DNA from: Marsupella aquatica
Lineage: Eukaryota > Plantae > Marchantiophyta
Assembly: GCA_973895155.1 (NCBI GenBank)
Contig: OZ316892.1
Span: forward strand, 27,366,307-27,430,306
Direction of reading: 5' to 3'
Length of the DNA: 64,000 bases
A model generated the notes under the pieces. It did not search any database. It was not told where the DNA came from and saw only the letters and a program-made list of their open reading frames with translations. A program made the translations under genes and the position numbers. Position 1 is the stretch's first letter, and each line of letters opens with the position of its first letter. This document shows, piece by piece, positions 3,001-53,800 of this stretch.

Positions 3001-3240
3001 TATCTCTTCAACTTGTATGTGGTGTGAGAACACACACAAGAGAGTTCTCAAGAGAGAACACAGGGATATAGCAAGAGATGAGAGCTTGAAGAGATGAGAG
3101 CTATGGTGATGCTTGAGTACACACATAACCGCTAATAAAGCTTGGTCTTCCCGTGGACGTAGCCAACCTTGAGGCAAACCACGTAACTATTGAGCACGTG
3201 CATGTTTGGAGTGTTTTTCCTGATCTGATTTCTCCCCACA
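1..3240 (+). mobile_element. Ty1/copia LTR retrotransposon, tandem copy 1 (5' part outside window): integrase, RT, RNase H, PPT, LTR
   Basis: Integrase motifs (LWHARLGH, HSDVWGP, LRSDNGGEY, PEQNGVAER), RT (KARLVAKG, SLYGLKQSPRQW, YVDD), RNase H (YVDAD, CDSQSAI, KHID, ADAFTK) in copia order. Near-identical to 5628-8867 (offset 5627). Confidence 0.97.
2915..3240 (+). repeat. LTR (326 bp), internal/shared
   Basis: Starts TGTAG after the PPT, ends CACA before ATTGGTATCAGAGC. Contains AATAAA and the CCCGTGGACGTAGCC...AACCACGT motif. Confidence 0.95.
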
Positions 3241-3242
3241 AT

Positions 3243-3254
3243 TGGTATCAGAGC
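3243..3254 (+). promoter_or_regulatory. Primer-binding site, initiator tRNA-Met type (also at 8870-8881)
   Basis: TGGTATCAGAGC 2 nt after the LTR end; canonical plant copia PBS. Confidence 0.93.
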
Positions 3255-8349: not shown

Positions 8350-8541
8350 ATAGAGTTAACCAAGAAATTGTCTCTATATGAGTACTCCATCCGATGGCTT
8401 ATCGGCTACGGCTTAGTTCTAGTTAACCCTTGCATTAGGAGGAGGGCCTTTTGGCCTTATTGTCTTGAACTTCCCGCGGAGGAACTTGTAAGGAAAAGAC
8501 AATATTATGAACCGTCCCAAGACGTGAGTCAAGGGGGAGTT

Positions 8542-8867
8542 TGTAGAGGTTAACTCAGTCTTGGGTTGAACTATGGTTAGGATGTTAACTAGGGTTAGAG
8601 TAAACCCTAGTTGAAGAGATTGATCCTTATCTCTTCAACTTGTATGTGGTGTGAGAACACACACAAGAGAGTTCTCAAGAGAGAACACAGGGATATAGCA
8701 AGAGATGAGAGCTTGAAGAGATGAGAGCTATGGTGATGCTTGAGTACACACATAACCGCTAATAAAGCTTGGTCTTCCCGTGGACGTAGCCAACCTTGAG
8801 GCAAACCACGTAACTATTGAGCACGTGCATGTTTGGAGTGTTTTTCCTGATCTGATTTCTCCCCACA
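8542..8867 (+). repeat. LTR (326 bp), internal/shared
   Basis: Appears identical to 2915-3240; preceded by PPT, followed by PBS. Confidence 0.95.
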
Positions 8868-11800: not shown

Positions 11801-14168
11801 GAGCATGTTGAGCCACTCTAAATTGCCACAAATCTTTTGGGCGAAAGCTGTGAACATTGTTGCTTATCTAGTAAATCTCTCTCCTAGTCGAGCAATTACT
11901 TACAAAACCCCCTTTGAGTTATGGCACAATCGACCTGCTGATTATTCAAAGCTTAGGGTTTTTGGCTGTGAAGCATATGCACATGTTCCTAGCAACAATA
12001 GGACTAAGCTAGATTCTAGAGCCCAGAAATGCATTTTTCTTGGTTATCAGCATGAAGTTAAAGGTTATCGGTTGTGGGATCCAGTTGATTGCAAGTTACT
12101 TGTTAGTCGGGATGTATCCTTCAATGAAGAAAAATCATTGAAGGAGGGGGAGATAGATCAATTCCCTACTACTAACAAAGAGCAATCTCCTCCTCTAGAG
12201 GATTTAAGGGGAAAGGATGTGTCAGATGAAGAATATGTTGACACCACTATAAGGCAAAGCACACTACAATCAGATTAGCCAGAGTCTTCAGTGCGAAGAG
12301 GAACTCGCAAACGTCAAGCCCGAGAAAGGTATGGAACTTGGCTTCCTTCTGATCAAGTGGATTTGGATGAAGAATCTATTGATGCATTGGTGACAGAAGA
12401 TGGAGATCCATCCTCATTTCGAGAGGTCCTAGCTTCTATGGAGAAGCAACAATGGCAGGCGGCGATGCGCATGGAAATGAAATCACTTCATGATAACAAG
12501 ACTTGGGAACTCACAAGTCTACCTAGTGACAAGCAGGCTGTTGACAGCAAGTGGGTGTATAGAAAGAAAGATGGACCCACGGAGGATGCTGAGAAGATAT
12601 TTAAGGCTCGGTTGGTAGCCAAGGGTTTTACTCAACAGAAAGGTATAGACTACAATGAGGTTTTTTCACCCGTAGCAAAGCATTCAACAATATGTTTGCT
12701 ATGTGCTCTTGTAGTTTTATTTGATCTAGTTTTAGATCAAATGGATGTTGTCACGACATTCTTATATGGATCGTTGGATGAGGTGATTTACATGAGGCAA
12801 CCAGAGGGTTTTGTACAAAAGGGCAAGGAAAATTTGGTATGCAGATTGCTAAAATCCTTGTATGGATTAAAGCAGAGCCCAAGGCAGTGGAACAAGCGTT
12901 TTGATGAATTTTTGAAATCGCTTGGATTTGTGCAAAGCGTGTACGATCCATGTGTTTACATCAGGCGTGTGAACAACACAGGTTTTAAGTTTGTCATCCT
13001 TGTACTTTATGTGGATGACATGCTCATTGCAGCAAAGGATAGGGGCGAAGTTGATAAGCTTAAGGCCCAACTCAGTTCTGAGTTTAAGACGAAGGACTTG
13101 GGCACAGCCAAGAGGATCCTAGGCATGGAGATTGTTAGGGATGTGAACAAAGCCAAACTTTGGCTGACGCAAAAACGATATGCAGAGAAGGTGCTCTCAA
13201 AATTCAACATGGCAGATGCTAAGGCTGTGAGTGTTCCTTTGGCAAGGCATTTCAATATTTCTGCAGCATTTTGTCCATCGGATGCAACAGAAAAAAGTTT
13301 GATGTCCAAAGTTCCTTATGAAAGTGCTGTGGGCAGTTTAATGTATCTCATGGTATGCACCCGACCAGACATAGCTTATGCCGTTAGCAAGGTAAGCAGA
13401 TACATGACAAATCCAGGAAAAGTCCATTGGGAAGCAGTGAAATGGATTTTGCGCTACATCAGAGGTTCCACTAAGAAGGGTTTATTGTTTGATGCAAGTT
13501 CAAACAATATGAAAGTGCTTCAAGGTTATGTGGATGCAGACTACGCAGGTGATCTGGATAAGAGGAGATCAACAATTGGATATGTATTTACACTTGCTGG
13601 TGGATGCATTAGTTGGAAGTCTACTCTCCAAAAGTGTGTTGCAAAGTCTACTATGGATGCCGAGTATGTAGCGGCAGCAGAAGCAGCATCAGAGACCATT
13701 TGGTTGAAAAAGCTTGTCAAAGAGATGGGTTTATCACAAGATTCTGTGTATCTTCATTGTGACAGTCAAAGTGCAATTTACACTGCCAAGAATCAGGTGA
13801 TGGATGGCAGGGTAAAGCACATTGATGTCCGCTATCATTTCATCCGACAGGCATTATCGGATGATGAATTTGAGCTTGTCAAGATTGATGGAAAGCTTAA
13901 TCCAGCGGATGCTTTTACCAAAGTATTAGACTCCAATAGTTTTTCAAGGCATTGTAATTATTTACAAATATTGTAAATAGAGTTAACCAAGAAATTGTCT
14001 CTATATGAGTACTCCATCCGATGGCTTATCGGCTACGGCTTAGTTCTAGTTAACCCTTGCATTAGGAGGAGGGCCTTTTGGCCTTATTGTCTTGAACTTC
14101 CCGCGGAGGAACTTGTAAGGAAAAGACAATATTATGAACCGTCCCAAGACGTGAGTCAAGGGGGAGTT

Positions 14169-14494
14169 TGTAGAGGTTAACTCAGTCTTGGGTTGAACTA
14201 TGGTTAGGATGTTAACTAGGGTTAGAGTAAACCCTAGTTGAAGAGATTGATCCTTATCTCTTCAACTTGTATGTGGTGTGAGAACACACACAAGAGAGTT
14301 CTCAAGAGAGAACACAGGGATATAGCAAGATATGAGAGCTTGAAGAGATGAGAGCTATGGTGATGCTTGAGTACACACATAACCGCTAATAAAGCTTGGT
14401 CTTCCCGTGGACGTAGCCAACCTTGAGGCGAACCACGTAACTATTGAGCACGTGCATGTTTGGAGTGTTTTTCCTGATCTGATTTCTCTCCACA
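14169..14494 (+). repeat. LTR (326 bp), terminal 3' LTR
   Basis: TG...CA. Differs from the internal LTRs at 14331 (T vs G), 14430 (G vs A) and 14489 (T vs C). Confidence 0.95.
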
Positions 14495-14595: not shown

Positions 14596-16225
14596 GGTCA
14601 TGGCATATGACAAATCTTTATGGCAAACAGTAATGATACATGAATTTGGTAGGTTGTACATTTTTCTGTCCCTAAGCTTAATTAGGTAGTTAAGTTCCAT
14701 CCAATTTTGACATTTGAGACCCTTATTGAAAGAAAGGGAAGAAGAAGGGTGGGAGAGAGCTCGTCCTCTCCTCCGCTCCACCAGTAGAGTACCAGTAGAA
14801 GAGCGGGTCATGGCATGTGACCAATCTTTATGGGAAAATGTAATCTAATATGAATTTGGCAGTCTGTAACTGCTTAGGTCCCTAACCTTTAGTTGAACTG
14901 CTAAGTTAGAGTCAACCGCATCTTGAGATTTGAGACCCCCCACTTGAAGAAAGGGAAGAAGAAGGGCCATAATCTAGTATGAATTTGACAGTCCATCGAG
15001 CAGTCCATGACTGTTTTGGTCGCTAACCTTAACTTAGTTTAACTTCTAAGTTAAGGTCCATCAAATTTTGGGGTTTAAGACCCCCCACTGGAAGAAGAAG
15101 GGCTCTAATGTAATAGAAAATTGACAGTCCATAGGGCCAATCAAATTTTGAGGATTAAGACCCCCCACTGGAAGAAAGGGAAGAAGAGGGCCCTAATCTA
15201 ATATGAATTTGACAATCCATGACTTTTTCCAACCCTAATCTTAACTTAGTTTAACTACTAAGTTAATGTCCATCAAATTTTGAAGTTTAAGACCCCTCAC
15301 TGGAAGAAAGGGAAGACGAAGGGCTCTAATGTAATATAATTTGACAGCCCATAACGTTTTTGGTCCCTAACCTAACCTTACTGCAGTATAAGTATTAAGC
15401 TCAGGTTCATCAAATTTTGAGGTTTGGGACCCCCCATTGGAAAAAAAAGGAAGAAGAACTCACTGCCCTAATCTAATATGAAATGGACAGTCACAACCTC
15501 TTTGGTCCCTAATCTGAACTTAGTTAAACTACTAAGTTAAGGTCCATCAATTTTTGAGGCTTGAGACCCCCCACCTAAACCAAGGGAAGAAGAAGGGCCC
15601 TAATCTAATATGAATTTGACATTTAATTTAACTTAGTTTAAACCACCACTAACCATATAAAAGGGGGAAGTGTCCAATGTTTCTCCCTTTTCACATTTCA
15701 CTTCCCCCTTTTATATGGTTAGTGGTGATTTAAATACTATAGTCCCTTCTCACTTGCTTCACAATCTCAGGAAAATGGTATTATCAATGGTGAAACGTGT
15801 TGGAAGTTTTGTCATGGTTAGTGGTGGTTTAAATAATAAAATTAAGGTCCATCAAATTTTGAGATTTGAGACCCACCACTCGAAGAAGAAAGGGGAGAGA
15901 GGTTTTGTCATGGTTAGTGGTGGTTTAAATAATAAATTAAGGTCCATCAAATGAGATTTGAGACCCACCTTCTCACTTGCTTCACAATTTCAGTAAAATG
16001 GTATTATTAACGGTGAGCCTTGTTGGATTCAGAGTTTGTCATGGCTAGTGGTAGCCATGACAAAATCCTTCACACTTGCTTCACTATTTCAGGAAAATGG
16101 TATAACCTGTTGGATTCAGGTTTTGTCATGGTTACGGTAGTGGTGGTTTAAATACTAAATTAAGGTCCAACAAATTTTGAGATTTGAGACCCACCACTCG
16201 AAGAAAGGGAAGAAGAAGGGCGGAG
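14596..16225. repeat. Degenerate tandem repeat region (~120-bp core unit)
   Basis: Recurring GGTCCATCAAATTTTGAG..GACCCCCCACTGGAAGAAAGGGAAGAAGAAGGGCCCTAATCTAATATGAATTTGACAGTC..CCTAACC..AACTTAGTT blocks (~10 partial copies), plus a second unit containing CATGGTTAGTGGTGGTTTAAAT. Confidence 0.8.
15637..15734. repeat. 36-bp inverted repeat (fold-back, 1 mismatch, 26-nt spacer)
   Basis: TTTAAACCACCACTAACCATATAAAAGGGGGAAGTG (15637-15672) pairs with CACTTCCCCCTTTTATATGGTTAGTGGTGATTTAAA (15699-15734). Confidence 0.85.
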
Positions 16226-17497
16226 AGAAAACTCCTCGTGTCCTCTGCTACTGCAGTAGTAGTAGAGTACTACTGTAGCAGAAGAGCGGCAGCAGCACAA
16301 AAGACTGGACAGTCAGTCTACTGCAATAGTACCTCTCTAGGGAAAGGAGGACGAGGCGGAGGAGGAGGGGGACAGCGCAAGAAGGCGCGGTTTGGTCGCA
16401 AAAATTAGAAGACCGACTCTCTCGCCCTCTCTCTCTCTCTGCATTTGTGTTTTCTCGTCTTTCACTCGTCTTTCTCGTCTCTCTTTCCGCATCCCGCATC
16501 CCGCAGCCGTCCCTTCTGCGTGAATTTGCGTCAGCAGCCCGCTCCAGCCTGCGGGAGTCGGTCGTCGATAGATTTTTCGTTCGGGTGCACAAAATCGCTT
16601 CCACATCTCCTGCATCCGTTACCTCTGCATGCGGTCTAGCCGGTCGTCGTGATCTTCTCGCGGTCTGCTGTGAAGCGAGAGAGGTGGAGAGAAAGATTGC
16701 TAGTGATAGAGTCGTAGTGTTGTGCAAAGTAGGCGAGAATCCAGAGAAGAAGCGCTTTTCCGCTTGGCGAATTGCTCATTCGGGGGCGGTAGGCACTACT
16801 ACTACTACGACGACGACGACTGTACGAAGAAACGTTGGGCTTCCCACTTCTTTGGCTGTGGGCGGTGGTCCGAGTGCTTTGGTTTGAATATTGAGGGGGC
16901 GGGATATGTCTGTTGGGTTGTCAGTTTGTCACGACCTTGGTGTCTATTTTGTCGCGAGAGTCAATAGAGACACGGACACATTGTACTGCAGTGCTGGGAG
17001 AAAGAAGGCGCTCGCTTATCAGGGAGGAAGCGGAGCAACGGGCTAGAAAAACCGGCATTGTAGGCAACGGACGGGCTTGCAGTCTGGCTGGTTACCGAGT
17101 AGGATAAATTAATGCGTCTCTGGTTTGTTTGTACGTGCTTAACGAGGAAGCGGCTCTGAAGCGGAGGAGGAAGGAGGCGACTAGAAGAATAAGGAGGTGG
17201 AGCTATTAGTGCAGTGCTGTCGACAAGTATAAGGACAGTTGGAGGAGTTTTGGGGAGATTGAGGAGTTTTAGGAGGTTGAAGAGTTGGAGGCGCGTAGGG
17301 AACGAATCAGACCTGAGGTTGGGGAGGTTTTGCATTGTGCTGCGGGGTTTCGTTTGATCTTGATAACGACATCGTCGCTTCTGGTGATGAGTGTTTGAGG
17401 TAGGACGCTAGTGTCAAATACCAGCGGCATTTTTGTGTGGATCATCAAGGCGTCATCGTGCTCTGCTGAGCGGCCATTAAGAGTAAGGTGCGGCGGA

Positions 17498-20400
17498 ATG
17501 GCGGCAACCAATATCGGGATGATGGACGGGGCGTATTTCGTGGGGCGGAACGAGATTCTGTCGTGGATTAACTCAACCTTGAGCCTCAATTTGAACAAAG
17601 TGGAAGAGGTATGTGTCTCCGTTTGCCTTCACCTTCAAATTCTTCTGATATGATCATCAGCATAGAAAGATGGAAGGGGTCGTTTGGTGGTGGTTGTAGC
17701 GGTGGACACCTTTTTGCATCCGTTCCGCCAAGATGATGGATTGCTCATTTCGATTGCAATAACATCTATCTCCCTTCTTGACCACTGCCCTTTCTACAAA
17801 ACTGAGGCAGTCTTGTTCGATAGCTTGGAGTTGTTGGACAGCTCCCAAAGGCCAAATTTCGGCTTCTGTTGGTCATGTGTTAGTCTTTTGTTCGTGGACG
17901 CCGGTAGGTGCATGTAGTAACCGCCAGTCATTGTGAAAAGTTTATGTTATGACAGGTTCGGGATAGTATAGTCAGTAATGTAGGTCCCTCTGGTACACCA
18001 GGTGAAAATGCCTTCCTCCTACTTTACGTCACTTTCCGAGCACTCTGCACTTCTACGCCTCCTCATCCATCTGTTGCCACTTCGTCCTAATCGGAGCATG
18101 AAGTGCCTGATGTGGCGTGCCAGAACGTGCAGTTCTGGCTCGGGGTGATGCGACTGGTGTGTGCGTGGGGTGGGACTCAGTGGTTGTAGTCCATTTGGTT
18201 AAATTCTCATCGTGTAGCGCAATGCTTAATGTAATTTAGGGAAGGCTATTTGCCCCTTTTTGTCTCGCCTCGTGCTGCTAGTGCGTACTGAGAGGATGCA
18301 CCTCGTGGTAGCTCAGTGTCGTTATGGGAGGGGTGAGTTCCCTTTTGTGTCCTAGCTCGTACTGCTGGGGGGTCTGGGATATTGCACCTTGTGTCGCAGA
18401 TGCCTTTGATTGTGCAGTCCTTGGACTCTGCTATTATCTTCGATGCACTGCAAGTTAGATAAAGGATGAGAGGTCGGGTACCTGCCCAAACTTTGTTTGC
18501 TCAGGAGTGCTCGACTTTGAGAACATTCCTTGTTCACTTCTCCATCGTGGTGACCTTGAGGAGGTCGAGTAATGCCGCAAGAGGCTCGACCTCAAAGGGC
18601 ATTCAGGGAATAATTCCATCCATAGTAGGGAGAATGAGAGAAGACTGAGTTTTGACGGCATTGATGTTGTCGTCACCTGTCGGCGGCAACCGTTCGGACG
18701 GCAATGTGTAGACCAAAGTAAATTCGTCAATGATGCGCTAGTTCACTGTGGTGCCGGTCATTTTGACCTTTGCCAAAATTGTTTTGCGAAACTATCCGTT
18801 GCGTCGCCAATGCATCGTCGTCGGCGCGGGATGCGGTTCCGTTTGTCCTATTGTTGGGAACTACCCAGCAGAGATTGTAACAGTTCGTTCATTGTCCTTG
18901 TTCGACATGTCCGTACTCTCACGAAGTTCGACGAAGTGAGTGGAAGTCAAACAGGTTTGGTGGCGGCTCTTCTCCGCAGTCTTAAGGATGGCTCTTCTGC
19001 CGTTGTTGAGAACCTGGGCTCTAGAGAGCTTGCCAGAGTGTTGCGATAGGATGAATGAGCCCATGGAGATATCAGTGTGGGGGCATGAGTGGATGGAATG
19101 AATCAGTAGTTGACTGTAGCGTTTCTTTTTCGCGGTGCGAAGAGTATTCTCCCTTGGCGCTGTTGAAATCACGTCTCTAGATAACTCTAAAATGAGCGTT
19201 TCAAATGTAAAACGGGTCAGTTGACCGTCTACTAATGGGTGGATCGTCTTTCGATTCCAAAGCAAAAACGTTGTGGAAAACGGGTCATTGGAGTCCTTAG
19301 ATCGAGATTTTGAAACTGAGAACCCTCGCTATTGTGCAGGCTGCTTCTGGAGCCGTGCACTGCCAGCTGCTGGACGCCACGCATCCGGGTGTTGTACCTA
19401 TGCACAAGGTCTGTTATTTATGAATTATTTACTGATATCCAGCCTTGCTTTGTTCTCTGCAATTCGATTTCTGAACTATCTTCCTCGCTGCCATTGGCTT
19501 TTGCTACCCGAAATCGATTGAGGAAGTGGTTTATCGTTCGTGTACCTGCAGGGCTAGAGATTCTAAGTTCGTGAAACTGGTGCATTTCTAATTGCCTTTT
19601 CCGACATTTTCTGCAGGTGAACTTTGACGCGAAGACGGAATATGAAATGATCCAGAACTACAAGGTGTTACAGGATGTCTTTAACAAACTCAAGATTAGC
19701 AAGGTACGCTTATCAGTTTCGGCCAATCGAACTCAAGGTCACTCGGTGGTTTTCCTCACGCTTTACCGGAGACACGAGAAGATGCTGGATGTCAACCAAT
19801 GTGGCTCATATTTGCGTGGCTTGTCCTCATTTTTTGGTGCAGCACATTGAGGTTAGCAAGTTGGTGAAAGGAAGGCCACTGGACAATCTCGAATTTATGC
19901 AGTGGTTGAAAAGATACTGTGACTCTATAAACCCTGGCTTAGGATCTGGGTAAGTCGCCGATGACAATTTCAATGCCCTGTATAATCTGGAACCTGTTGG
20001 TTAGTCATGGGTCTCTGAATCCCTATCTGAAACATTGGCAATTTGCCTTCAGATATACTGTTGGGCTCTATTATCCTGAATAAGTATCCTGCACTAGGCG
20101 GTTGCCATTCCTTTTCCGTTTCCTCTGCTTGTTACCGTCATGTTATGTTGATGTTGGCTGTGTCCTTTCTCAGGTACAATGCTACAGAGAGACGAGAGTC
20201 CTGCAAAGGAGGGAGGGAGGCAAATAAGAAGGCATTTCTGCCAAGTAATGCTGCCCCCTACTCATCTGGCAAGTCAACTCCTTCCAGCACCCGGCCCAGC
20301 ACTCCCGCCATGTCTGCTCTGCGCAAGACTGACAACTCACATACGACATCCAGTGGCATGAGTGAGTTGCTCGTCTCTTGTGTGCATCCCCTAGGATGAT

Positions 20401-21475
20401 AAGATTGGTTCCGATTTTTTTTTGATTGTGCTCTGTAAGTCTCGTTATATCACTAATATGTCATTCATTCTAGAGGATTACCTAAGGCCTCGGTAACCTC
20501 ACTGTGAACGTTACGTGTTCATGCAGTGAACAGAGGAGGAAAACATGCATCTAGTCTGCCGAATGTATCAAGTGTCCCACCAGCCCAAATTCAGGCTCTA
20601 AATGAACAGGTAAGGGCTGAAACTTTCCTCACCGCGACACTTCCTCATTGTAATGTTTTTATGGATTGTATAATATTGCTTCAAGATGTTTCAAGCTGTA
20701 GATCTTTGATTTGTGCAATTGATACAGTCCGACGAAAACTGGACTTCAAGACTACTTGACATTGAGTGAAGATTCCTCGCACTGTCGTCCATGTTTACAG
20801 ATAACAGAGCTGAAACTGTCAGTTGATAGTCTGGAGAAAGAAAGGGATTTTTACTTTGCGAAGCTGCGGGACATTGAGATACTATGCCAAAACCCAGAAT
20901 TGGGCCATCTTCCTGTACGTGTCATGATCGCAAATGCTGCCACCTTTGTTTGCGAGTGTCATGCAATCCCAGATGATTGCAGCTAAGTGAAGGAAGTATT
21001 ATAGGGTGGGGCCAAGAATGCATGTTATTACCTTCTGGCTTTCTCAAAGGTTTTTCTTTAACCTTTTGGCTGCATCAGACGTTTGACACCGTACTGGGTT
21101 TTTGCCGAGTGCATGTGGACACCGCTTCGAGGATGAAAAAAATATCGATTGTTCTGTGCACAGGTGGTTATGGCAGTTCAAAAGATTCTGTACGCAGCTG
21201 ATGACAACCCTTCAGTGATTGCTGAAGCTCAGGCGTTGATCAGTCAATCTGCTGCTCGGGAAAGCCCTAAGGACTCCTTAATGGAAGATGACGATGATTC
21301 CTTTTTTGACTCCTTGACAGCACGGCGTGATGCTCACAAGCGCAAACAACAGCTCTCCCCTCCCGAGACTACTGATGAGGCTTCCTTGCTTCTATCACCA
21401 AGGCAACGCAGAATATCCTGTGGGGACTCTAATGGAGACTTTCTTCAAGGAGTATCACCTGTCAAGGTACAGTAA
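17498..21475 (+). CDS. EB1: Microtubule end-binding protein EB1 (RP/EB family), EB1c-like tail; 8 coding exons
   Basis: Exons 17498-17608, 19340-19408, 19617-19703, 19843-19949, 20174-20361, 20527-20609, 20801-20914, 21164-21475, all GT-AG and phase-consistent. CH domain ([52 protein letters not shown]) and EBH domain ([20 protein letters not shown]). Confidence 0.95.
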
Positions 21476-28860: not shown

Positions 28861-31080
28861 AAATACCACTAGCGTTTGTTTTAGTGACCCAAATTAGCCA
28901 AATTTCACCTCCCCAAATGCTTTTGACATTGTTGGAAATTAGTTAATTTTTCTCTGTCTCATTAACTAATGTCCCATCTATTCTCAGCCCCATTAATCAA
29001 AATTGATGTCATCCTTAAATCTAGAGATAGATCTCATAATAAAAAAACATTAAAGTAAAAAGAATATTTTGAGAGCTTCTCCTTAATAGAGTCTATATAG
29101 CCACTCTAGCGAAAACATATAAAACTTTAAAAAATAGGCTCGGGACCTACACTAGTAGACTACTATATCCCTTTGATGTCAGTCGTTGTTGTTATGTGCT
29201 GCACGCTTCTGCATAATCACCAAAGTAATAATGGTTGCATTTGTGCTCGCACGAGGGAGGGAGGATAATGATGAATATCCTATTCATATGGAACCGGGTC
29301 ATAACTAGAATCTGCCCATTATTATCCTCCTGAGATAACCGAAAATTGGTACAGCGAATCTAAACAACTTTTATTGTAAACTGATTCGGGCCACTGTCTG
29401 TAACGAGATTACATCATTTCTGTCTTACATGTGCGTGTTGTAACTATTTCGTCCTTTACTTCTCATATATGTTGTACTAGCCTGATTACACGTCACTTGA
29501 ACGTAAATAGAAATGAAGGAAAAAGAAAACCTGCAAAATAAAAATACTGTGTTATCTTCCATTTATATTTGCCCCATTCCTGTGTTTGATTCACTCTCAC
29601 TTTGTTCTTATTTAGAGTACAGTTTTGTCCTTATTTTAGAGTTCATTTTTGTCTCCCTTTGTTATTATTTAGAGTCCAGTTTAGACTTGTTTTAGAGCCC
29701 AGTTTTGTCCTTATTTGGAGTACTGTCTAGAATCTTCATTCTAGACCTTCGCCCTTGAAAATAGCTTATGTTAGAAAATTATTAGTAAGATGCTGGTGCC
29801 AATAGTATAGTATTATGGGTATAATAAGTAAACTGCTATATATATTATAATTTATAATCAAAGGTTATCATTCATGACGTAGTGGAGAGTGAGCCATAGG
29901 CATCATCATCTTTTTGGTAATATTTTTGTATTTAGACAATGCATGTGAGTAGGGTGGCTTGTGGAATCTGCCTATGGGGAGCCCTTCCCATGCATAGAGA
30001 GACGGGTATTCTGGCTACTGAAAGAGAAATAATTAAGAGAAAACAACGAGTAAGAAGGAAGAAACAAGAAAAGGTAAGATTTGAAATTAGAAAACAGAAA
30101 GCCAGGTTGATCGAGAAGGGAGTGCACAAAGGCTTGATAGCTGTCCATGCTTAATTGGGGATGTATGTATAAACTGGAATGGTGGCAAACTAGTGTAGGT
30201 AATGTCAAATGGGTTCCTGTTCCGAAATGGAGCATCCTGTTTGAGAGGATGCTAGAATGAACCATTGTAACCTGCGTGGACCACTCTGAAGCATTACTTT
30301 TTACTCCGGTAGCATCTTTCATTTGTATAATTTTTCATTGCTTGGAGTGGGAAATGTTCTTGGGCTATTGGACTGTCGAGGTCAAACGGTGTGATCTATC
30401 CAAGCATCAACTTCTTCTTTCTGGTGGCTTGTGCGAGTTTGTTTTATAAGAGTTTCAAGCCATCTCTTCTTTGTGTGTTTAGTAATGTCTCTAATGGCAA
30501 GGATAGTTTTTGTTTGGGTTCGGCTGCGGCATTCTGCCTATTTTCCTTTTGGAGGCTTGGGTAGTGTTCTTTGTGAGTGCTGGTTTTAGTTGCAGGTGGA
30601 ATATATAATATGAGGCACTATCACTTTTAACTAGAAAAAACGAAAGCACTTTTGGATCTGGCCATAATTGTAAACCAGCTCCTAATTAAGTGCTTTTTGA
30701 CCAATTGCAAAAACTTGTTGTTATACTCAGTGTAACACTATAATCCCTTGTCATACAGTACTGTAATCTACAGTTGATGTGTAAACAACTGTTCTTTACA
30801 CCCAAAGTATCATCCTGGTTAGCCCTCGGACAGAAGTGTAGGCCTGACATGTCAACAGTTTCCGACCTGATGTCCACCAAACTCTTCTGTAAGACTGTAA
30901 CTGAGGCGTTTGGGTCTGACATGTCAGCATCTGTAAACCTGACGTCACATCGCTGTCCTGTAAGTCTTGTAAGGCTGTAACTGAACTCATTCGAAATGTC
31001 ATGATTGTAGAGTAGTACAGATTTTACTCTGGTTCCTTTGTCACTCAAGCTCTTGTACAGTACAGTCGTTCGGTACAAGA

Positions 31081-33585
31081 GTGAGGTCTTACAGTAGTTG
31101 GCTTACTCGGTGTCAGTTTACGGCTTACTCGGTCTTGAGTCAGTTTACTAGTAAAACGAACATTCATCGAGAAAGAACAAAGAAACGAACGAAAGAAGTA
31201 GAGGAATTTTGCTCCACAGCTCTAGACACGCGATCTGATCTCCTCTTCTCTCTCGTCTGGTCTGGTCTTGTCTGTGCGCATTTCAATCAGAAATTCGATT
31301 TCAGCAGCATCAAGTCAGGACCAGGACCATCGCGGGTGCAGCAGCAGCAGCAGCAGCAGCAGTGCTACAAAGAGGAAGCGAAGAAGGTGAACACCATCGC
31401 CAGGCGGAGCGGTTCTTTTGTTGGTCGAGTGCAAGAGAAGAGACTGGATTCGCTCTTGTCGTCGGGATCGTCGACTGCATTTGGCAAAGTGGGTGTTGTT
31501 GCAGGAGAAGAAGCAAAAGGAGGAGGAGAAAAGAGAGTACAAGAGAAGAAATTGGATTCGGTCTCGTGGTCGTCGTCGACTGCATTGGGTAGAGTGGGTG
31601 TTGTTGCACGAGACGAAGCAAAAGGAGGAGGAGAAGGGAAGAGAGAAGGAGCAGAGAAGGAATTGTATTCGATCTCGACGACGAACCCATTTGGGCCCGG
31701 GAGGAGTGGCAAGAGCAGGAGCATCAGCAGCATCAATAGTAGCATCACCAGCAGCGGCAGTGGGACCCCAAATCCTCTCACAGCGGCGCATTGCACGGCG
31801 AGTCGATTGTCACGTTCATCCGTCTCGGTGGTAGAGGAGGAAGGAAAAGTGGGGGAGGTGGTGGTGATCGAGGAGGAAGAGGAAAGAAGGAAAGGGAGGA
31901 CGACAGCGGAGCTTAATAGATTGTGTGAGCTTCTCGAGGAGGAGAGGAGCAAGAGTGCGGAACGGACCCGAATTGGAAGAGGAAGAGGGGAGGCCCTTGA
32001 AAAAGAGGAGGGCGAATTGCCTGAGATTAACTGCTGCTTCCCTTCGCCTCCCCCGTCGCCATCACCATCGTTGTCGACTACACCTCTGAGACCCACAGAG
32101 AAGAGGAATTTGGAGAGAAGTGGATCGGCAGGAAGGAAATCTTCTTCCGCAGCTTTGACGCAGAAGGAGGGAGAGGTTCATCAGCCTTTCGAGGTTTTAT
32201 CAACGACACCTGCAAGATTTTGCGAGATTCTCCCTGCTGGTCATTTGTCTTCTGTACCTAAGGAGGCGAATTGCTTGACTTGCGAGAGTAAAGAAGACGA
32301 TCAGCTGCTGCAGCAGAGGTCGCCTTTTGAAGGGCTTGAGGGAATTCTTGGGGAGCTTGCGAAGATTGGTGAACCCCCTCCTTATTTTTCTCCTCCATCT
32401 GAACCAAAAGAGGGAGAGGGAGAGCAAGAGGAAGAGGCAGTGACTGTTCCAAAAGCGGATTGTGCATTATCTAGCACATCAACAGCAAAGCAACATCATC
32501 AAGATCAGCAGGTCCGCAGCAGCAGTAGGAAGGAGGGGCTAGCAGGACTTGTGGAGCATGCGAGATTCGGCGAAATTTCCACTAGTCTTGGGTTCACTGG
32601 CACTTCATTGGTCTGCAGCACCCATCATGAGACGAAGCCGAGTAACGAAGTAGAAGAAGTGGAGAAGAACTGCATTGTTGTTCACGAGAAGGAGAACAAG
32701 TCGTTGAAGCCCTGGGAATACGAATTGTTCCACGGATTTTCGCAGGAACCGGTCTGTTACGTCGAAAGAGAGACTCCTCGCACTCCTAAGGATTTTAATA
32801 ATCATCATTCAAGGAGCAGCACTTGGGAGGAAGATTTACTTGCAGGGTTTTCCAATCTCTCTCTTCAGAACAAGCGGAACAACCAATTTACAGGAGAAGG
32901 GTTTTCGCACCTCTTCGATCAAAACGTCGTCGACAACAACTTACTAGTAGAAGGGTCGACGAGTCTCTCGATTCAGAGCAACAACCACGACAGTGAATTA
33001 TCGGGAGAAGAAGGGTGTTTTAATCCCGCTCTTCTTACCAGCAACGACAACCTCAGCAGCTTCGCAAGTGAAGAATCGAATCTCTCTTTTCAGAACAGCA
33101 ACCACCACAACATCAAGAGCCTGAACAATAACTTGAGAGGAGAAAGGTTTCCGAATCCCTCTCTTGAGGGAAACATAAACCACGTCAACCACAACGTAAC
33201 AGGAGACGGGGTTGATACTAAGGTCGAGGTCTCTGTTGAGAAGTACATCAACAACAGTGGAACAAGAGAAGCGGGTGATAACACTAAAGTTGAGGACAAG
33301 CACATCAGTTTTGTGGGTCAGCAACTGGACCGCCATTACGAGGAAGAATTCAGCTCAGCTGTCGCATCCGTGGAAAGCTTGAGTTTGGGAGATTTAGTGA
33401 AATCTTGTCCAGGAGAAAGAGCAGCGGCAGCTGTCGAGCACCAAGAGAAGAGCTTCCAATCTCTCTGCCTTTCTTCCTTTCACAGCCTTACCGACGATTG
33501 CCTTGAGAAGAGACAATTCTTACAGAGCTTTGTGAGTCGCATTCCCCCTCCTCCACCGAGCTGCTACACCAGAAATAGAATCAAA
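31081..33585 (+). CDS. Putative non-AUG-initiated, low-complexity N-terminal extension in frame with the aminopeptidase (true start unknown)
   Basis: 835 codons without a stop or Met, contiguous with ATG 33586. Last in-frame stop is TGA 30982-30984. Contains frame-preserving repeats (108-nt duplication, CAG tract). Confidence 0.6.
31339..31362 (+). repeat. (CAG)8 microsatellite, poly-Q in the extension frame
   Basis: Direct reading. Confidence 0.9.
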
Positions 33586-35822
33586 ATGGCACCGATCGAC
33601 CCTCATTCGTACGCTGACTCGTCACATCCACTCACCAAGCACGTAGCTTTGTCCCTCTTTCTCGACTTCCAGACCAAAATTATCAGCGGGACTGCAACTC
33701 TGACGTTGGAGAGGTCTCACAAGGGAGAGATTTTTCTAGACACTCGAGATCTGACGATCGAATCGGCAGAGGACTCCCAAAAGAAGAAGAGCCTGAAGTT
33801 CTTCCTCGAGAAACCGGATGCGATCAAGGGATCTCTCTTGAGGATCGTTCTTGAAGAGGAGGCCTCCGCCTTCTCTGTCACGTTCAAAACTTCTCAATCT
33901 GCTTCAGCCCTTCAGTGGCTCGACCCATCCCAAACAGCTGGGGAGAAATTGCCATATGTGTTCACTCAATGTCAAGCCATCCATGCCCGGTCCATCTTCC
34001 CCTGCCAAGACACTCCCATTGCCCGAATTACATACTCGGCTGACGTTAACGTTCCAGCTGAGCTCTCTGTGGTCATGTCTGCTGCTCATGTGGGACGAAC
34101 TCTGAGCTCAGATTCCGCGGCCAGAGCCATTGAAAGCTTTGTGATGGAGCAGCCCATTCCGCCGTACCTCTTCGCTTTAGCTGCAGGGGACATTACCTAT
34201 GAGGAGGTCGGGCCCCGGACCCGGATCTATGCAGAGCCGTCAGAGGTAAAGGCTGCAGCGTACGAATTCGCCAATACTGAGGAGACGGTGAAGAAAGCAG
34301 AGGCACTTTTTGGGCCGTATGATTGGGAAAGGTTTGACCTCCTGGTCATGCCGCCCAGTTTCCCCTATGGTGGAATGGAGAACCCGAGGATGGTGTTTCT
34401 GACCCCGACCATCATCGTTGGGGATCGTAGCGGGGTGGAGGTGGTTGCCCACGAGCTAGCACACAGTTGGACTGGGAATCTCATCAGCAATGCGACTGCC
34501 AATGACTTCTGGCTCAATGAGGTACTGTGTATATCACCTCTCCCAACCTCAGGACTGATCAGTGTATATTGCCATGTCGAACCTTCAACAAGCGGGTAAA
34601 ATTCTGGGTTAGTACTCTCAATAATAAACAAAACACTGAGGCAAAACATATTTTTTCTCCTGATGTGCGCGAGTTAAATAGTGGAAGAGAGCCAACGTCG
34701 GTCATCAAAGATTGATAGGTCAGAAAATCTCTGGGACTCCAATTTCTTAATGATTCTTCGAAATCATCATTCACACGGGTGAACTCACGTGTTATGCGGT
34801 GTCTCAACATTTCAGATTCCAAGTGTGAATATTTACCCTGTCCCAGCAGCTTTGCATTGAGTGACTGAAGTTTTCTCCCTCTCTAAAAAAGTGTTAGGCG
34901 GGCTATGAATCAGAAAGTAATCCTCGATTTACGACTCTTGAGACATGTATCGTTTTGCTCGCAGGGATTCACAACGTATGCAGAGCGCCGCATTATTGAG
35001 GCGCAGGATGGGCTAGCGAGTGTTCAACTGCACATCGGTATTGGGTGGCAAGGGCTCGAGGAAGAGGTTGAGCGCTTCAAGGAGCGGCCTGAGATGACAA
35101 AACTGAAGATGCACATGGAAGGCGTCGATCCAGATGAAATCTACTCCAAGATCCCGTATGAGAAAGGATTCCAGTTTCTGCGACGATTGGAGTTCCAGGT
35201 GGGACGGCCAACCTTTGATGATTTCCTCAAAAAATATATTGCCAAGTTCAGATTCCAATCCATTGATACGGAGACCTTTCTAGTATTCCTCAAGGAAAAC
35301 CTGCCCAGAATAGAGGAGCAAGTGGATCTCCAAACATGGATTCATGGGACAGGAATTCCTGATGATGCCGTTCGGCCCAAAGCAGGCCTCTTAGAAAGAC
35401 TTCAGAGTCTGGCAGATGGGTATCAATCTGGTGGGAAGCCTACGGCAGTGGAAACGGAGACATGGTCTGCTCAAGCATGGATAGTCTACATTGAGCGTTT
35501 ACCTAAAAAGCTAAGTGCAGAACAGATAAGGGAGCTCGACGAACTGTATCATTTCTCTGAGTCTCCTAACTGGGAAATCAAAATAGGAATACTGACCATC
35601 GGAGCAAATTCTGCCTATCAGCCTTTTTATCCCCAAATTGAGACGTCATTGCACAATGTCGGGAGGATGAAGTATCTCAAACCACTCTATCAAGGTCTTC
35701 TCGAGGGCTCCTCAGAGGGAAAGAACCTGGCTTTGAAAGTGTTTGCTGAAGCCAAGAGCAAGTACCATCCTATTGCCCAGGTTGTTATACAAGGATTGTT
35801 GACAAAGTACACTTCTTCATAA
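33586..35822 (+). CDS. LKHA4: Leukotriene A4 hydrolase-like M1 zinc aminopeptidase (leucine aminopeptidase), ~597 aa core, 2 exons
   Basis: Exons 33586-34521 and 34965-35822 (GT-AG, phase 0). Conserved plant start MAPIDPHSY, TQCQAIHARS, GGMENP, zinc motif HELAHSW...WLNEG, IPYEKG, GRMKYLKPLY. Confidence 0.96.
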
Positions 35823-36693
35823 GGTGCAGACAGACTTTCATATTCCTGGAAAAGACGATGCGATTCGCCATCTGCGTAGCTCCTCGTTTATTTCAGGGAA
35901 TCATCCAAATTTTGCTCTGTTGAATGTATTAGGAGTTTCAAACAAGTTGTCCGTTGTATAAAAAGTGTACTTGGGTACCTTTCCATTATTCCCTAAAGCT
36001 CTGTACAGTAAATTTCACCTGCCTGGAGAGCTTTGAGTCCATTTGAGATTTGCGTCACTAGTTTGGGAAGGATTTGGCCCGAGGAACCAACTCCATTCTT
36101 CTCTCCTAGGCAGAGCTTTTGTTTGAAGAATTGAGTCCTGCCTGGCAATATTGTCCAGGATACGAAGCTGTGGTAGCTTTGAAAGTGAATCCATAAATTA
36201 CAATTCCAGGGCCCTCGTAGGGCAATGAAACAAAAGGATACCATTTTTGTTTAAATCACAAAACCTGGATCTACCAGGTTTCACCATTTTAGTACATTTT
36301 TTCATTTTTAGTACATTTTTCCTGGAGCAAAGTTTCACCTTAGAGGAGAAAAACATTTTTAGTATATTTTTCCTGAAATTGTGGAGCAGAATTTCACCCT
36401 AGAAGAGAAAAATTCCTGAAATTTGCAAAGTTTCACCCTAGAGGAGAGAAAAATGTGAAGAAGGGAGAAGCGGTGGTTTCAGACAAACCCATTTCCTGTG
36501 GTACATTAAGAACACGTAACACTTTCCCAAAAAGTATTGCAAATGCGGTCCGTTGATACAGTGAATGATTTCAGGTTCGCTGATTGTAATGGCAACTTGC
36601 TCATGCTCGTGTACGATTTGTATAATCACGCTTCTAAGAACATGAGTGAGGACAAATGGTTTATACAAATCTACAGGGACGACACCAATTGTC

Positions 36694-42408: not shown

Positions 42409-45163
42409 CATTAGAGGTTCTTTTCAAAATTCTTGGCTCCACAGCGTGCCACCTCATCATGACACGCCGCAAACAGGAAGAGACTTGTTTTTGGATAAAA
42501 TTAACTTATACATTCGTGTTTGTGATAACTTCTGTAAAAATTGGGATGCCATGCCGTAAAAAGAATGTAAAAAAATTGAGGTAAAACTGCTCTCAGTAAC
42601 GGTTTTATTTTCATTTTGATTTTATTCAAAACATAAAATTTTCCCGACAACAATTTTTGATTTGACATTGTTGAGTCAAATCATAATAAAAACTCACGTA
42701 TAATATGACATTGGAAAGATCTTGAAGAGACGATCCTGATGAGCTCAACATTGTCACCATTCGATAAGAATTGAGGAAGTAATTTTGAAAAATAGATTTT
42801 TACCCATGATTTCATAATCTCTAACGTGAATAGAAATCTTTGTTGTACAACCCCTGAAATGTTGACCCCTTTCATGAGAATGAAACTAAAATTAACAGAT
42901 TTTATCGAGTATTAAGGAGATTATGAATTTTAGAATTTATTTAACTTTTTAATGAACTTAACATTGATAGATTTAGTTCTAAAAGCTGGTTTTGTATCTG
43001 ATCTTAATTATGGTTGCATTGGTAAGTTTGGCAACTATTTCAAGTGTCAAACATTGACTTGTCCATTTTTGAATTTTTTTTCTTTAGATTAGGAGGTCCA
43101 TCTAGGCTTCAGTTTCTAGAATAACATGGGGGTCCATGGATTAATTAAGGTTTTTACTTTTTGGCTGGAGTGGGGAATGTCCTGTGTGTAAAGGAGAAGA
43201 TGCTCAAAATATTTCTTATTTGATTATTTTCCTGACCTTCAGATCTCCCTGGATTTAAGGATAACCATTAGATTCTGGCTAATGGGACCTGTGATTAGGT
43301 GGAACACTATTGAGACAGAAAAAATACTAGCTAATTTTTGCCAAAATGGCAAAAGCTTTTTGGGGAGGTGGAATTTTGCAAATTTCTGCCACTAAAAAAA
43401 AGGCTGACTCATGCCTAGAGGTAATATGGGCTGTAGTCCTTCAATTCTAAAATTGATGTGTAGGGTAACCTATGCCTGGAGGTATTATGGGCTGTAGTCC
43501 TGGAGTGTATCCTAAAGGGTAGTGCTAATTGCACATCAACCAGCCAAAGCCGGATAAGGAGGAACAACAGTCAATGATATAAAGATACATGGGGTTTGTT
43601 GTGGTATAGAAATTAGCACATCAAAAAAGGGGGTTTGTTGTGGTATAGCACATCAAAAATGGGGTATGCTTGTTGGGACCTTTAATGTGGAGCAAGCTCT
43701 ACACTGATGTGGATCCTGGAAATGTGCAGATGTACAACCTCATGTCTTCAACTTTTGTGCACGATGGCAGAGTTTCCCAAGAGCACGGTCGTATCCAGAA
43801 GGTTGTAATCCCCTAAGGGTGGTGGCCCGATAGGGTTATACTCATGGCCCTCAAACAGGCCATAGCAAGCATAGCCACCATACTCTCTTTTGCCATAAAG
43901 TTTTGCATTTAATTTGAGACTTGCAAGGCCGGCCAAGGACTATTAGACTTTGGAACCCCCTCACTGGCCAGTCTGGCAAGGGGGTTATGGGTGGGGATCG
44001 ACCAGTCCTCTCCTTAAGGAGAAAATAGGGGATTACAAATTAAATAAAGAGAGAGGCATGGTTGTGTGGTAGCTCACTTGAGTTGAGACTCATTGTCTAG
44101 TGTTGAAATGGTGTGATTGATTGTTCCCTTTATGTGGGGTTTCACAGATTTCCCCTTAATAAAAAATGATAACATGAATGACAAATTCAATAAATGGAAC
44201 AACAAGTAAAACGTAAAACAGGTAAAAAGGAAGCTTGCATGGGCCACAACACTTGACAAACAGCTCAGATAGACCACTCAACCTTTTTTTAAATGTCACT
44301 TTTTAGATCTCAAAAGTGTTCATCAGAGTTGCAAAGTTGTCTATCTGAGCATTGATTTGACCCTTTATCCCTGGCAGCAAGAACAGGCAGGTTACGAGTG
44401 CAAGATAGTAATCCCCATTTCCACAGACTGGAGCAGCCCTTTTGTTTGTAGGTGAGTTGCTGCCTAAATTCTACCTAGACAATGCTCAGGCTACTTAATA
44501 CAAAAAAAAAAGATTTCCCCTCAATTTTTCAAACCCCTTTTTCTAGCTGAGACGCTTCATTGCCAAGCCTAACAAATGGATTTTGTTGAAATCTAGAGAA
44601 TTGAACAGTTCACATTCATGTCTCACAAAAATATCACAATTTCCCAAGGAAAAAAGGTCAGAAATGGGAGCCTAGATGGACATCCACATTTGCCAAAAAT
44701 GCTCTAATTGACTTTCACAACCAGGATGGATGGCAACAAAATCCTATTTTCTTGTTCACTTGGATGATACTTGTCACACGAAGAGTGAAATGTGATAGAA
44801 AACAAGACAGACATTTTTGGAACTCTTAGAGACTCTCACAATTCTCAATGAAAGTTGACTATTAATAGTATAATTGTTCTAAAACCCAAAGATATTGACT
44901 GTTCCCTACCAAGGAAGGAATTGAAGGTCAGATTTTACTGATAAAAATTGTCACAAAGTGGGAAGAGTGTATTGTAGTCTTTGAAAATCCATAGCTCTTG
45001 TAAAACTCTATGAAAGTTGGTGATATTTAACTTGATGAAAATAATTTTCTAAGCTGATTTTAGTGAAACCAAAACTGCTGACTCCTCTTCATATGGAGGG
45101 AGAAATTGAAGATAGGGGTGATGATAGAAAGCTTTAGAAAGCAAAAAGAGTGTGAGCAAGTGA

Positions 45164-50854: not shown

Positions 50855-53800
50855 ATGGGAAGGATGGAGGGGACGATAATGGCTAGAGTGATGCTGTTGA
50901 GATTGGGATTGGTGCTGGTGTTGGTGCAGCTGAGCGGCGCTCCTGGAGCTAATGGTGACTGCTTTCCCGCACTCTTCAACTTTGGAGACTCCACCTCCGA
51001 TTCTGGAGGGATTCATGCAACTTTCCCTAAGCTGGCACCGTCCGAGTTTGGTCCATATGGAGACACCTATCCTGGCGTGCCATGGAACAAGTTTAGTGAT
51101 GGACGTCTACAACTCGATTTCATTTGTAAGTGTTGCTTTTTTGCAACCGTTGTCCAGCCCAACTATGTGTTTATGCTCTGATTAGAGTCCGATGGCGTGC
51201 ATATATTAGATTCAACTCGAGATAATTGGGGAGTGACGGCTGGATGAGGGGTTCCTTTGAATGATGTGCACAGTTGTTAGATCGTGATCATGAGCACCAT
51301 TTCTGTCACGCTGAGGCAGAGATTGTGTTGTAATTTCTCTGGGAGAGGGCGTGAATTGAAGTTCAAAGCATTTTTCCACCCTCTATGAAACTCTAGGAAT
51401 TGGTTGACACAATTTGCCGGTCGATGGCATAGTATCTACTTGTTTAGTGTGCTTTTTGGTTTACTCTACAGTTCAGTGCCTTGATCTTCTCAACTTCTCA
51501 TGATCTACTCAACTCTACTTGATCATAGCAAAAATGTACAACTCCTTACTAGCTATACCCTTTGTGGGGAAGACTGGTTTCAGTGCCTTAATTATTTCGA
51601 TCTTGATTAGTGTCTGGGCGAGGGGGGCGTTAGCATGGTAGCTAGCACAAACCAATTTCTGCAAGATCCACAGCACTGCATTTTTTGGAGTCATGCCTCT
51701 TATTTTGATGGGCTTTCAAAAGTTGAGCGCTCACAATCTTCTTTCCCTCTCATTTACTGGATCGAGATCTATCAAGATTTATAAGTTGGCGAAGTATTGA
51801 AGCCTGGATCTTCGAAAAGTAGCCGTCAGAGGTCAGATGCATGCCCCGTCATCTCATGCGCATTCATCAGCACCCGCCAGCAAGGGATACAGTCATACAG
51901 GGTTGCTTCCTCGCATTGCTTGCTTCCAAGTTGCACCACAGTCGGTTTTACACAAATTCTGGACTCCATTGTTGCACTCTAGCACCATGACATCTGCTAC
52001 TAAGTGGAGATGGCTCGCGACTGTAGCTTGCTGGAAAAGTACAGTAATCAGCCGGAAGCTTGGTCTATCATTGGATTATTGTGAATGTGAGCATGCAGCT
52101 ATGTCGCCGTCTCATATACAGACACTGATCTGGAAGTGAAGGGGAAAACGGGATAGAATTTCATAGAATTTCTCTGGGGAGATTGCTTGATTAGAGAACG
52201 TTGTTCCCGAAAAGTTGGACGATCGTGGGAAGATTATTCACAGGATGCAATGTGGGCCTCATTTTCTTACAGCTCAGGGGCTGGGACTCAAATACTTGAC
52301 GTCTGCTATGCAACCGGTGGATTCGGACTACTCAGACGGATGCAACTTCGCCACAGCCGGGGCCACAGTGATGCCGATCACGTACATGAGCCCCTTTCCA
52401 CTTCCAGTGCAGTACCTCCAGTTCCTCCGGTTCCAACAAGAAGTCATCGCCCTCCGTTCTGATCCTGGTATGTTGTACTGTAATACTCTCAGTATTTTCT
52501 CGTGATCTGTTCGTACATCTGTAGATGGGTATGTGGTAGAAACTTTCCGTCATTTATCTCGTCTTAGTCTACTTCAGTTGTCATGGACCCATTTTACATT
52601 TGGTCCTGTCTTCCAGTCTAGATAGAAATGTGTCCAACTTCTGTTGACGTATTGGGCTCAGACTTCGTGTTGGGTTGATGAAGATTGATCAATCTCACGG
52701 TCCAGTCGGAACCATCCTTAGATCTCGTGTGAGGACCGACTGTGTTTGAGTCATGTCTGACCATAGTTTGGAGTCGGGACTGACAAGTGACGTTGTCATT
52801 GACTATGTCTGGTGACTTTCTTAACAGCGACGCCTGCAAAGATGTTGGCGAGGATTCCGCAAGTGGATGCTTTCAGCAAGGGGCTCTACACGATAGCGTT
52901 GGGAGGAAACGATTTCACTTTCGGATACAACAAGGGCATGACTCTCGACGAGGTGGACGAGTATCTCCCACTCGTGGCAGATGGTCTCGTGAATGCAGTG
53001 AGGCTGCTCTACGAAGCTGGAGGCAGGTATTTCATCGTGTGGGACATCGAGCCGCATGGCTGCCTACCTTACATACTCACTTTTGCCAAGAACAAGCCCG
53101 AGTACAAGCCGGACGAATTGGACGAGCACGGTTGCATAATCAGCTTCAATGAGGCCTCGAAGCGTTTTAATGTCATGCTCAAGGAGAAGATTGCCAAGGC
53201 CAGGGAGGAGTTGCCTGAGATCAGCCTCCACATGCTCTCAACCTATGATATCAAGATCAACCTTAGCCAAAATCTGACTGCCAATGGTAAGTGATCAGTT
53301 CTCTCACTTTTATTGTCCGATTCCGATTCGGTCTATCGTTAGAGATTGCAATCTGGTGATGCGGAGTCTGATGAATGTTATCTGCCAGTCGGTTGTTTTT
53401 TCGCCGTCACCCTTCGAAAGAATGAAGTACGCTTTATAATGTCAAACAGTTTCTTCAAGTTTCCTCTCGCTCTCAAAGCCGTAATGAATGCGGATGAGAC
53501 GCAATCAAACCCACTGATTGATTGATTGGAATCCACTCTTGTCCTCTGATGTAGAATGTTGAAAGTTTCAAACACGTGGTAGTGTACGGTCCACTCAAAA
53601 GTCTTCGGACAGAGGATAAGCAATGAATCCTACTTTTCTGACGAAAGCAGCAGTAGTAAAATTATTTATATATATATATATATATACTACCGGGCATTAA
53701 TGACTGCCCACAGTACCTCCCCCATTCCCCAAATTTTCCAGATCCTTGGACAAGATATCTGCTCACCAGAACTTTGACTCTAATAATGGGCATGCATGGA

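Follow-up and report, generated by a model that had tools for sequence, protein, structure and literature searches.

In a 64,000-nucleotide stretch of Marsupella aquatica DNA (contig OZ316892.1, positions 27,366,307 to 27,430,306; hereafter the window, in whose coordinates all positions are given), the gene for a 597-residue LTA4H-like M1 aminopeptidase is preceded by an exceptionally long leader, in which the reading frame of the enzyme remains open for 867 codons without a single Met. The open frame and the purge of AUG from it are real. The extension is very probably translated, as its conservation suggests, and we assign a probability of about 0.6 to a reading in which one mRNA would give both a non-AUG-started long isoform of about 1240-1450 amino acids and, by leaky scanning, the ordinary enzyme. 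The features of the leader and of the gene are as follows.

30985..33585, + strand: stop-free and Met-free frame of 867 codons, in frame with the aminopeptidase; putative N-terminal extension
31003..33585, + strand: AUG-depleted zone, with 2 ATGs over all frames
31339..31362, + strand: in-frame CAG run (8 Gln)
32558..32653, + strand: out-of-frame upstream open reading frame (uORF) of 31 codons, which takes in the ATGs at 32558 and 32627 (A at -3 in each case)
33586..34521, + strand: coding exon 1, from the conserved AUG (context ATCAAA ATG G), with GGMEN, HELAH and WLNE
34522..34964, + strand: GT-AG intron of 443 nt, precisely the 443 nt skipped by two contigs of run X1 (see below)
34965..35822, + strand: coding exon 2 to the stop, with the catalytic Tyr (IPYEKG) and the Leuk-A4-hydro_C domain

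Results

The open frame and the depletion of AUG

As stated in a preliminary description of this DNA, the aminopeptidase frame runs without stops up to the conserved start MAPIDPHS at 33586, which is its first in-frame ATG; it is open from 30985 to 34596. Four ATGs occur within 30985-33585, at 30996, 31001, 32558 and 32627, every one of them out of frame, and from 31003 to 32557 (1555 nt) there is none in any frame. The same description had counted only two ATGs (32558 and 32627) in 31081-33585, where it expected roughly 39: the count stands, while the expectation was too high, as dinucleotide composition predicts 24.5. The corresponding ratio of 0.08 is nonetheless the lowest among the 64 triplets in this interval, the second lowest being 0.55. 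Two further details of that description also hold: the depletion is strand-specific, with CAT occurring 37 times in the same interval, and NAY codons ahead of a G-starting codon avoid creating ATG, 15 of them ending in C and 2 in T, versus 43:41 elsewhere.

None of 2000 order-2 Markov simulations reached an open frame of 700 codons, the maximum being 489, and the two other frames of the leader region contain 25 and 42 stops. The frame is open also in the 153 codons 5' of a candidate start at CTG31444 (30985-31443), with 0 stops against 6.3 expected (P = 0.0012). In shuffles that keep the protein and its codon pool fixed, there are 2 out-of-frame ATGs from 31444 onward versus 9.5 expected (P = 0.0004); in the peptidase coding sequence the fixed-protein shuffle gives 25 against 18.8 expected. 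By itself the out-of-frame deficit is only moderate evidence, because in the leader shuffle the z-scores of CTA and GCG (near -3.3) are close to that of ATG, which is the lowest (-3.5); combined with the complete lack of Met it is strong evidence.

The enzyme

The Pfam domains Peptidase_M1_N (E = 3e-20), Peptidase_M1 (E = 2e-15) and Leuk-A4-hydro_C (E = 5e-28) are recognized in the product of the two coding exons. M1 aminopeptidases are defined by the motifs GXMEN and HEXXH-X18-E and by a catalytic Tyr; these are intact here as GGMEN, HELAH...WLNE (HELAH-X18-E) and the Tyr of IPYEKG, and the predicted catalytic set is complete. The three domains and all catalytic motifs are shared with other LTA4H-like M1 aminopeptidases, such as human LTA4H (PDB 1hs6) and the plant leucine aminopeptidases of 590-620 residues; the Marchantia polymorpha orthologue matches human LTA4H with E = 5e-124. 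The closest relatives of the enzyme are in Calypogeia fissa (84-88% identity), followed by Riccia and Marchantia, an order that points to a leafy liverwort close to Calypogeia as the host. The context of AUG 33586 is strong, with A at -3 and G at +4.

Conservation and transcription of the extension

Two proteins of C. fissa, CAM6118045.1 and CAM6113903.1 (1222 and 1175 residues), carry the extension, with 58% and 57% identity to that of the window. In each alignment there are 22 indel events, none of them shifting the annotated frame, and this is the pattern of indels in multiples of three that had been proposed as a check; the C. fissa gene models could mask frameshifts in small introns, but the conserved blocks nonetheless keep one frame throughout. 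Eleven blocks of at least 6 residues are identical in the window and in both C. fissa proteins. Since this homology starts near 31540, at least about 680 codons of the extension behave as coding. The principal conserved elements are listed below.

31894..31956, + strand: conserved block GRTTAELN.LCELLEEERSKS, from the C. fissa alignment
32347..32394, + strand: conserved block LGELAKIGEPPPYFSP, identical in the window and both C. fissa long proteins
32698..32856, + strand: conserved blocks KSLKPWEYELFHGFS, PKDFNN and RSSTWEEDLLAGFSN, the first found also in the more distant paralogue contig of run X1
33454..33567, + strand: conserved end block FQSLCLS...CLEKRQFLQ.FVSRIPPPPPSCY
33535..33546, + strand: SRIP, an SxIP-type motif, the only motif clearly common to the extensions of the window and Marchantia

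Within one of the conserved blocks, EDLLAGFSNLSL (32830-32868) resembles a CRM1-type nuclear export signal, for which it is a candidate.

That the extension is transcribed together with the enzyme, as the preliminary description supposed, is supported by spliced contigs of a relative (run X1), which carry much of the leader and lack the intron. The first contig (4620 nt) spans 31643-34519 and then joins 34963; its part 5' of the AUG is about 2155 nt long, and the gaps relative to the window, 41 letters, add up to +3. The intron is missing from a second, more distant contig (4170 nt) as well; in it the sequence before the AUG measures about 1870 nt, and two motif blocks recur in frame, their spacings differing from those of the window by 234 and 3 nt. 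In the relative, the extension lies on the same spliced RNA as the enzyme from 31643 on. Nine substitutions in the extension are printed for run X1, a subset of roughly 200, and among them none creates a stop and none an ATG. The same run has no coverage at 30202-31371, which carries no weight either way. A frameshift at a 23-letter gap of another run, X5 (30968-31231), was considered and rejected, as the gaps there net -21 nt.

Both long C. fissa copies have HELAQ in place of HELAH, with loss of the second zinc His, and IPSEKG in place of IPYEKG, with loss of the catalytic Tyr; their branch has about four times the length of that of the window gene, and they are likely to be pseudo-enzymes. 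Two other C. fissa copies, CAM6084658.1 and CAM6090940.1, have an intact active site; either C. fissa clade may be the sister of the window gene (support 93/86 and 80/83; approximately unbiased test, p = 0.108). In the peptidase part the two long copies share 96% identity, and both have kept their open frames (1175-1222 residues). Their extensions hold 11 and 9 Met, which align with Val, Thr and other residues in the window. With Marchantia as outgroup, the Met-free extension is best read as the ancestral state, Met having been gained where the short enzyme is dead; the normal Met content of these catalytically dead copies fits a purge that is retained for ribosome access to AUG 33586.

Similarity searches with the extension gave nothing further. 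An extension-only protein search found no match at near lengths, and phmmer gave 0 hits among 1.84 billion representatives; residues 1-308 of the Marchantia extension used as a query also had no match. None of 209 pattern matches in metagenome loci could be confirmed, searches of the ESM Atlas returned one unrelated hit at 0.75 and otherwise none, and Pfam reported for the extension only ANAPC16 (E = 0.03), under its cut-off. As they cover cluster representatives and missed even the C. fissa and Marchantia proteins, these searches are no proof of absence.

The orthologue in Marchantia and the wider distribution

The Marchantia polymorpha orthologue (MARPO_0007s0135) is annotated under four accessions as a protein of 593 residues. 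Directly 5' of its start, MTPIDPHS, there is an open, Met-free stretch of 303-307 residues, seen at the protein level in a fused gene model (OAE35712.1) and in an ORF of the Logan assemblies (P0126); this is the kind of orthologous leader that the preliminary description had suggested seeking in related species. By chance, 307 codons would lack Met with a probability of 0.003 and stops with one of 4e-7. The sequence SF[VC]SRIP[PL]PP, located just before the AUG, is common to the window and Marchantia (P = 0.0005 within the last 60-70 residues). The neighbouring gene on the upstream side is also the same in the two plants:

17498..21475, + strand: EB1 gene, upstream neighbour of the aminopeptidase gene here and in Marchantia

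Because EB1 lies upstream in both, the window and Marchantia genes are, by gene order, syntenic orthologues. OAE35712.1 itself, with 1480 residues and a CH domain, was considered as a true EB1-aminopeptidase fusion and rejected, as EB1 and the aminopeptidase are distinct genes in the window, and the EB1 piece in Logan ends with a stop of its own.

Metagenome loci with the enzyme start motif, 13 in all (six Sphagnum-like and seven flowering-plant-like, classed by sequence), look different: none has more than 72 open codons ahead of its AUG, and in every one an ATG occurs within 96-472 nt. The moss and flowering-plant loci thus differ from the window gene in having no long open leader, and such a leader is not generic to the family. 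Two fern transcript ORFs of the aminopeptidase start at nt 341 and 255. The arrangement itself appears from these comparisons to be old, spanning leafy and complex thalloid liverworts; the split between these two classes is about 400 million years old.

Overall, the proposal of the preliminary description that the region is under two constraints, one for coding and one against AUG, is supported by the homology in C. fissa, by the spliced contigs of run X1 and by the Met-free counterpart in Marchantia.

Candidate start sites and the 5' end of the transcript

The region in which a non-AUG start would be expected contains a repeated unit:

31427..31677, + strand: tandem duplication, 82% identical, with a partial third copy (copies 31427-31566 and 31535-31677)

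In each copy an in-frame Leu codon (CTG31444, TTG31552 and TTG31663) follows an A-rich run, and these three codons are candidate near-cognate starts. The good context of CTG31444 and its echo in the duplicated unit at TTG31552, both pointed out earlier, are confirmed: each has A at -3 and G at +4. Altogether there are 34 in-frame near-cognate codons within 30985-31900. As the frame is open for 153 codons further 5', where run X5 differs by a net -21 nt, initiation may occur 5' of CTG31444, in 31020-31440. Acceptor-like AG sites are found near 31060, 31143 and 31290, two of them in phase 0. Repeated TGACATGTCA, TGACGTCA and CTGTAA elements of promoter-like character occur at 30805-30980, immediately 5' of the ATG-free zone, and suggest a transcription start site near 31000-31100. 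A TATATAA sequence is present at 30602.

The predicted tail and its SRIP motif

A structure was predicted with AlphaFold2 for the C. fissa homologue CAM6113903.1, from an alignment of 50 rows. The peptidase is modelled with confidence, and almost all of the extension has a predicted local distance difference test score (pLDDT) below 50, in agreement with the disordered N-terminal domain that had been proposed from the composition of the window sequence; the one confident helix in the extension corresponds to TTAELN..LCELLEEERSKS.

The SRIP motif deserves separate consideration. The nine-residue consensus for binding to EB1 through SxIP, as quoted in PMC3649978, is X1X2[ST]X3[IL]PX4X5X6 in which X1-X4 include a basic residue and acidic residues are absent, and it is matched by FVSRIPPPP in the window and C. 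fissa and by FCSRIPLPP in Marchantia. An SxIP-type motif is found at the same place in 4/4 extensions, one of which has a second; in Marchantia the flanks are Ser-rich. With SxIP-type EB1-binding plus-end proteins the window shares one SRIP that fits the consensus, in a region that appears to be of low complexity and rich in Ser and Pro, a likeness at the level of sequence. No aminopeptidase is known to us among these proteins, although no search was made for one.

Docking of the long form on EB1 at microtubule plus ends via SRIP is a tentative idea, which we consider possible but doubtful. Three considerations speak against it: many credible SxIP motifs fail to bind EB1 (PMC3649978), a low-confidence helix predicted in the C. 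fissa model ends at SRIP, and the neighbourhood of the EB1 gene may be mere synteny.

Other features of the window

Two inverted copies of a 270-bp repeat, with 72% identity to each other, flank the aminopeptidase gene (28871-29130 and 43145-43405), and a high-copy dispersed repeat (36258-36451; depth in the thousands, with many loose ends) lies just 3' of the 3' untranslated region of the gene. Positions 1-14494 are occupied by a near-perfect tandem repeat (99.8-99.9%) with a unit of 5627 bp and putative copia-like gag/pol frames broken by stops, which either arose very recently or is an artefact of the assembly. Between this retroelement array and the EB1 gene, 14596-16264 contains degenerate, satellite-like repeats of roughly 150 bp. 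On the other side of the window, frames at 52803-53291 (+ strand) and 58149-59531 (- strand) resemble in their motifs a putative GDSL-lipase exon and putative WD40-repeat exons, respectively.

Discussion

A mechanism for two isoforms and its alternatives

The reading that we prefer can be formulated as follows. A minority of scanning ribosomes would initiate somewhere between about 31020 and 31665, at a single near-cognate codon or at several, and would produce a protein of 1240-1450 residues, with a predicted disordered N-terminal half containing short conserved motifs, which might serve as a targeting or scaffold tail. The remaining ribosomes would traverse the AUG-free leader, either leaking past the 31-codon uORF or re-initiating after it, and would start at AUG 33586 to give the ordinary enzyme. 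Since uORFs of less than about 35 codons permit re-initiation (PMC3105428), this uORF is short enough; it may also tune the ratio of the long and short forms.

Several observations weigh against this reading. The scan of 2.2-2.6 kb that it requires is unusually long, and the internal ATGs at 32558 and 32627, given the A at -3 of both, could trap scanning ribosomes. No hairpin was found 3' of CTG31444 or TTG31552 (z = +0.6 for CTG31444). The spliced contigs come from a relative and not from M. aquatica itself, and 7 of the 9 printed substitutions of run X1 are non-synonymous, with no sign of purifying selection. The extensions of the window and Marchantia are hardly alignable overall (score 69, shuffle P = 0.03), and that of Marchantia is only marginally similar to those of the C. 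fissa copies (P = 0.05-0.08). The C. fissa long models, which are the only annotated long proteins, begin with AUG. Finally, OAE35712.1 enters the Marchantia extension at a splice junction 3 residues after the first M of P0126, so that the Marchantia gene may have a 5' intron and an exon further upstream.

The last two points also favour the strongest alternative, to which we attach a small but appreciable probability: translation of the long isoform would begin on an upstream exon, at a weak AUG, with this exon joined at one of the acceptor-like sites described above (two of which are in phase 0), and leaky scanning would again yield the short enzyme. A weak AUG would account equally well for the purge downstream. 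This explanation is at odds with the frame being open already 5' of the acceptors, in 30985-31443, where an intron has no need of it; furthermore, all four Marchantia accessions give only the 593-residue form, and the Met residues of C. fissa, aligned as they are with other residues here, look gained.

An explanation with two promoters, in which the long protein would come from a long mRNA and the enzyme from a separate short one with its 5' end within the extension, is improbable. It would dispense with a 2.5-kb scan and bypass both internal ATGs, but leaves unexplained why the first 1555 nt (31003-32557) are free of ATG and the 867 codons free of Met.

It is very unlikely that the region, once coding, is now merely a long AUG-free 5' leader from which just the 597-residue enzyme is made. 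AUG depletion is normal in leaders, and the predominance of non-synonymous changes in run X1, together with the empty searches of the extension for families, folds and distant relatives, would agree with such a loss of coding function. In contrast, this frame alone has escaped the stops (25 and 42) of the other two, the indels with respect to C. fissa and run X1 remain in frame, peptide blocks have stayed identical, and a separate open frame is present in Marchantia.

That only a long non-AUG-started protein is made and later processed, with AUG 33586 as a retained ancestral Met, is highly improbable: yeast vacuolar aminopeptidases do have pro-forms, but here AUG 33586 is in a strong context and the path to it has been cleared. 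Genes that use solely a non-AUG start also tend to carry out-of-frame AUGs, according to PMC3105428.

A broader picture, liverwort-wide, may be drawn by extending the two-isoform reading: a non-AUG tail of 300 to >800 codons, as much as two or three times the maximum of the human survey discussed below, behind a 2.5-kb AUG-purged corridor; SRIP, the one deeply conserved motif of this tail, would dock the enzyme on the EB1 of the adjacent gene as a plus-end-tracking peptidase, with the Calypogeia duplicates splitting off an AUG-started, catalytically dead long form. Taken as a whole, we regard this picture as rather unlikely.

Relation to known extensions and significance

These results can be compared with what has been described in other organisms. 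In a human survey of conserved non-AUG N-terminal extensions (PMC3105428, Ivanov et al. 2011) the longest reported is 300 codons, with a median of 51 for the new cases. The cases of that survey resemble the one described here: the leader is open and lacks AUG in its frame, AUGs in the other frames are few, conservation is of the coding type, and two isoforms that coincide at the C-terminus are predicted. They differ in size, reaching at most 300 codons where the extension here has no fewer than about 680 and as many as 867; start site and translation are, in the present case, predictions.

In plants, CUG and ACG starts are in use in tomato and Arabidopsis (PMC7605272), more than 90% of the non-AUG extensions of maize are under 500 nt, and the plant cases (maize, rice and soybean) are said in PMC13096810 to be of limited conservation. 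In-frame upstream near-cognate starts and extended proteoforms, for which a change of localisation is often proposed, would be common to those plant cases (PMC13096810, PMC7605272) and to the window; in contrast to the cases of PMC13096810, the leader of the window measures 2-2.6 kb and its arrangement is found in both leafy and complex thalloid liverworts. Marchantia, bryophytes and aminopeptidase are not mentioned in the main text of PMC13096810, although its supplements could list very long extensions, and the passages covered of PMC9082881 give no longer example. A search of the open literature, with subscription papers and supplements outside its scope, found no description of the gene or of its extension. 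The mechanism would be of a known kind, and what is unusual is the size and age of the extension.

If the two-isoform reading is correct, a plant mRNA encodes a conserved enzyme also in an isoform of twice the length, absent from the annotation, and over 2 kb of sequence that is both coding and AUG-free has to be scanned by ribosomes. The size range of non-AUG extensions would then go well beyond the 300 codons reported in the human survey (PMC3105428), and the gene would be a counter-example to the short and poorly conserved extensions described in plants (PMC13096810). Since the same arrangement is found at MARPO_0007s0135 in the model plant Marchantia polymorpha, the start codon, the isoforms and the idea of SRIP binding to EB1 are directly testable. 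Long Met-free open leaders may possibly have been overlooked in the annotation of bryophyte genomes.

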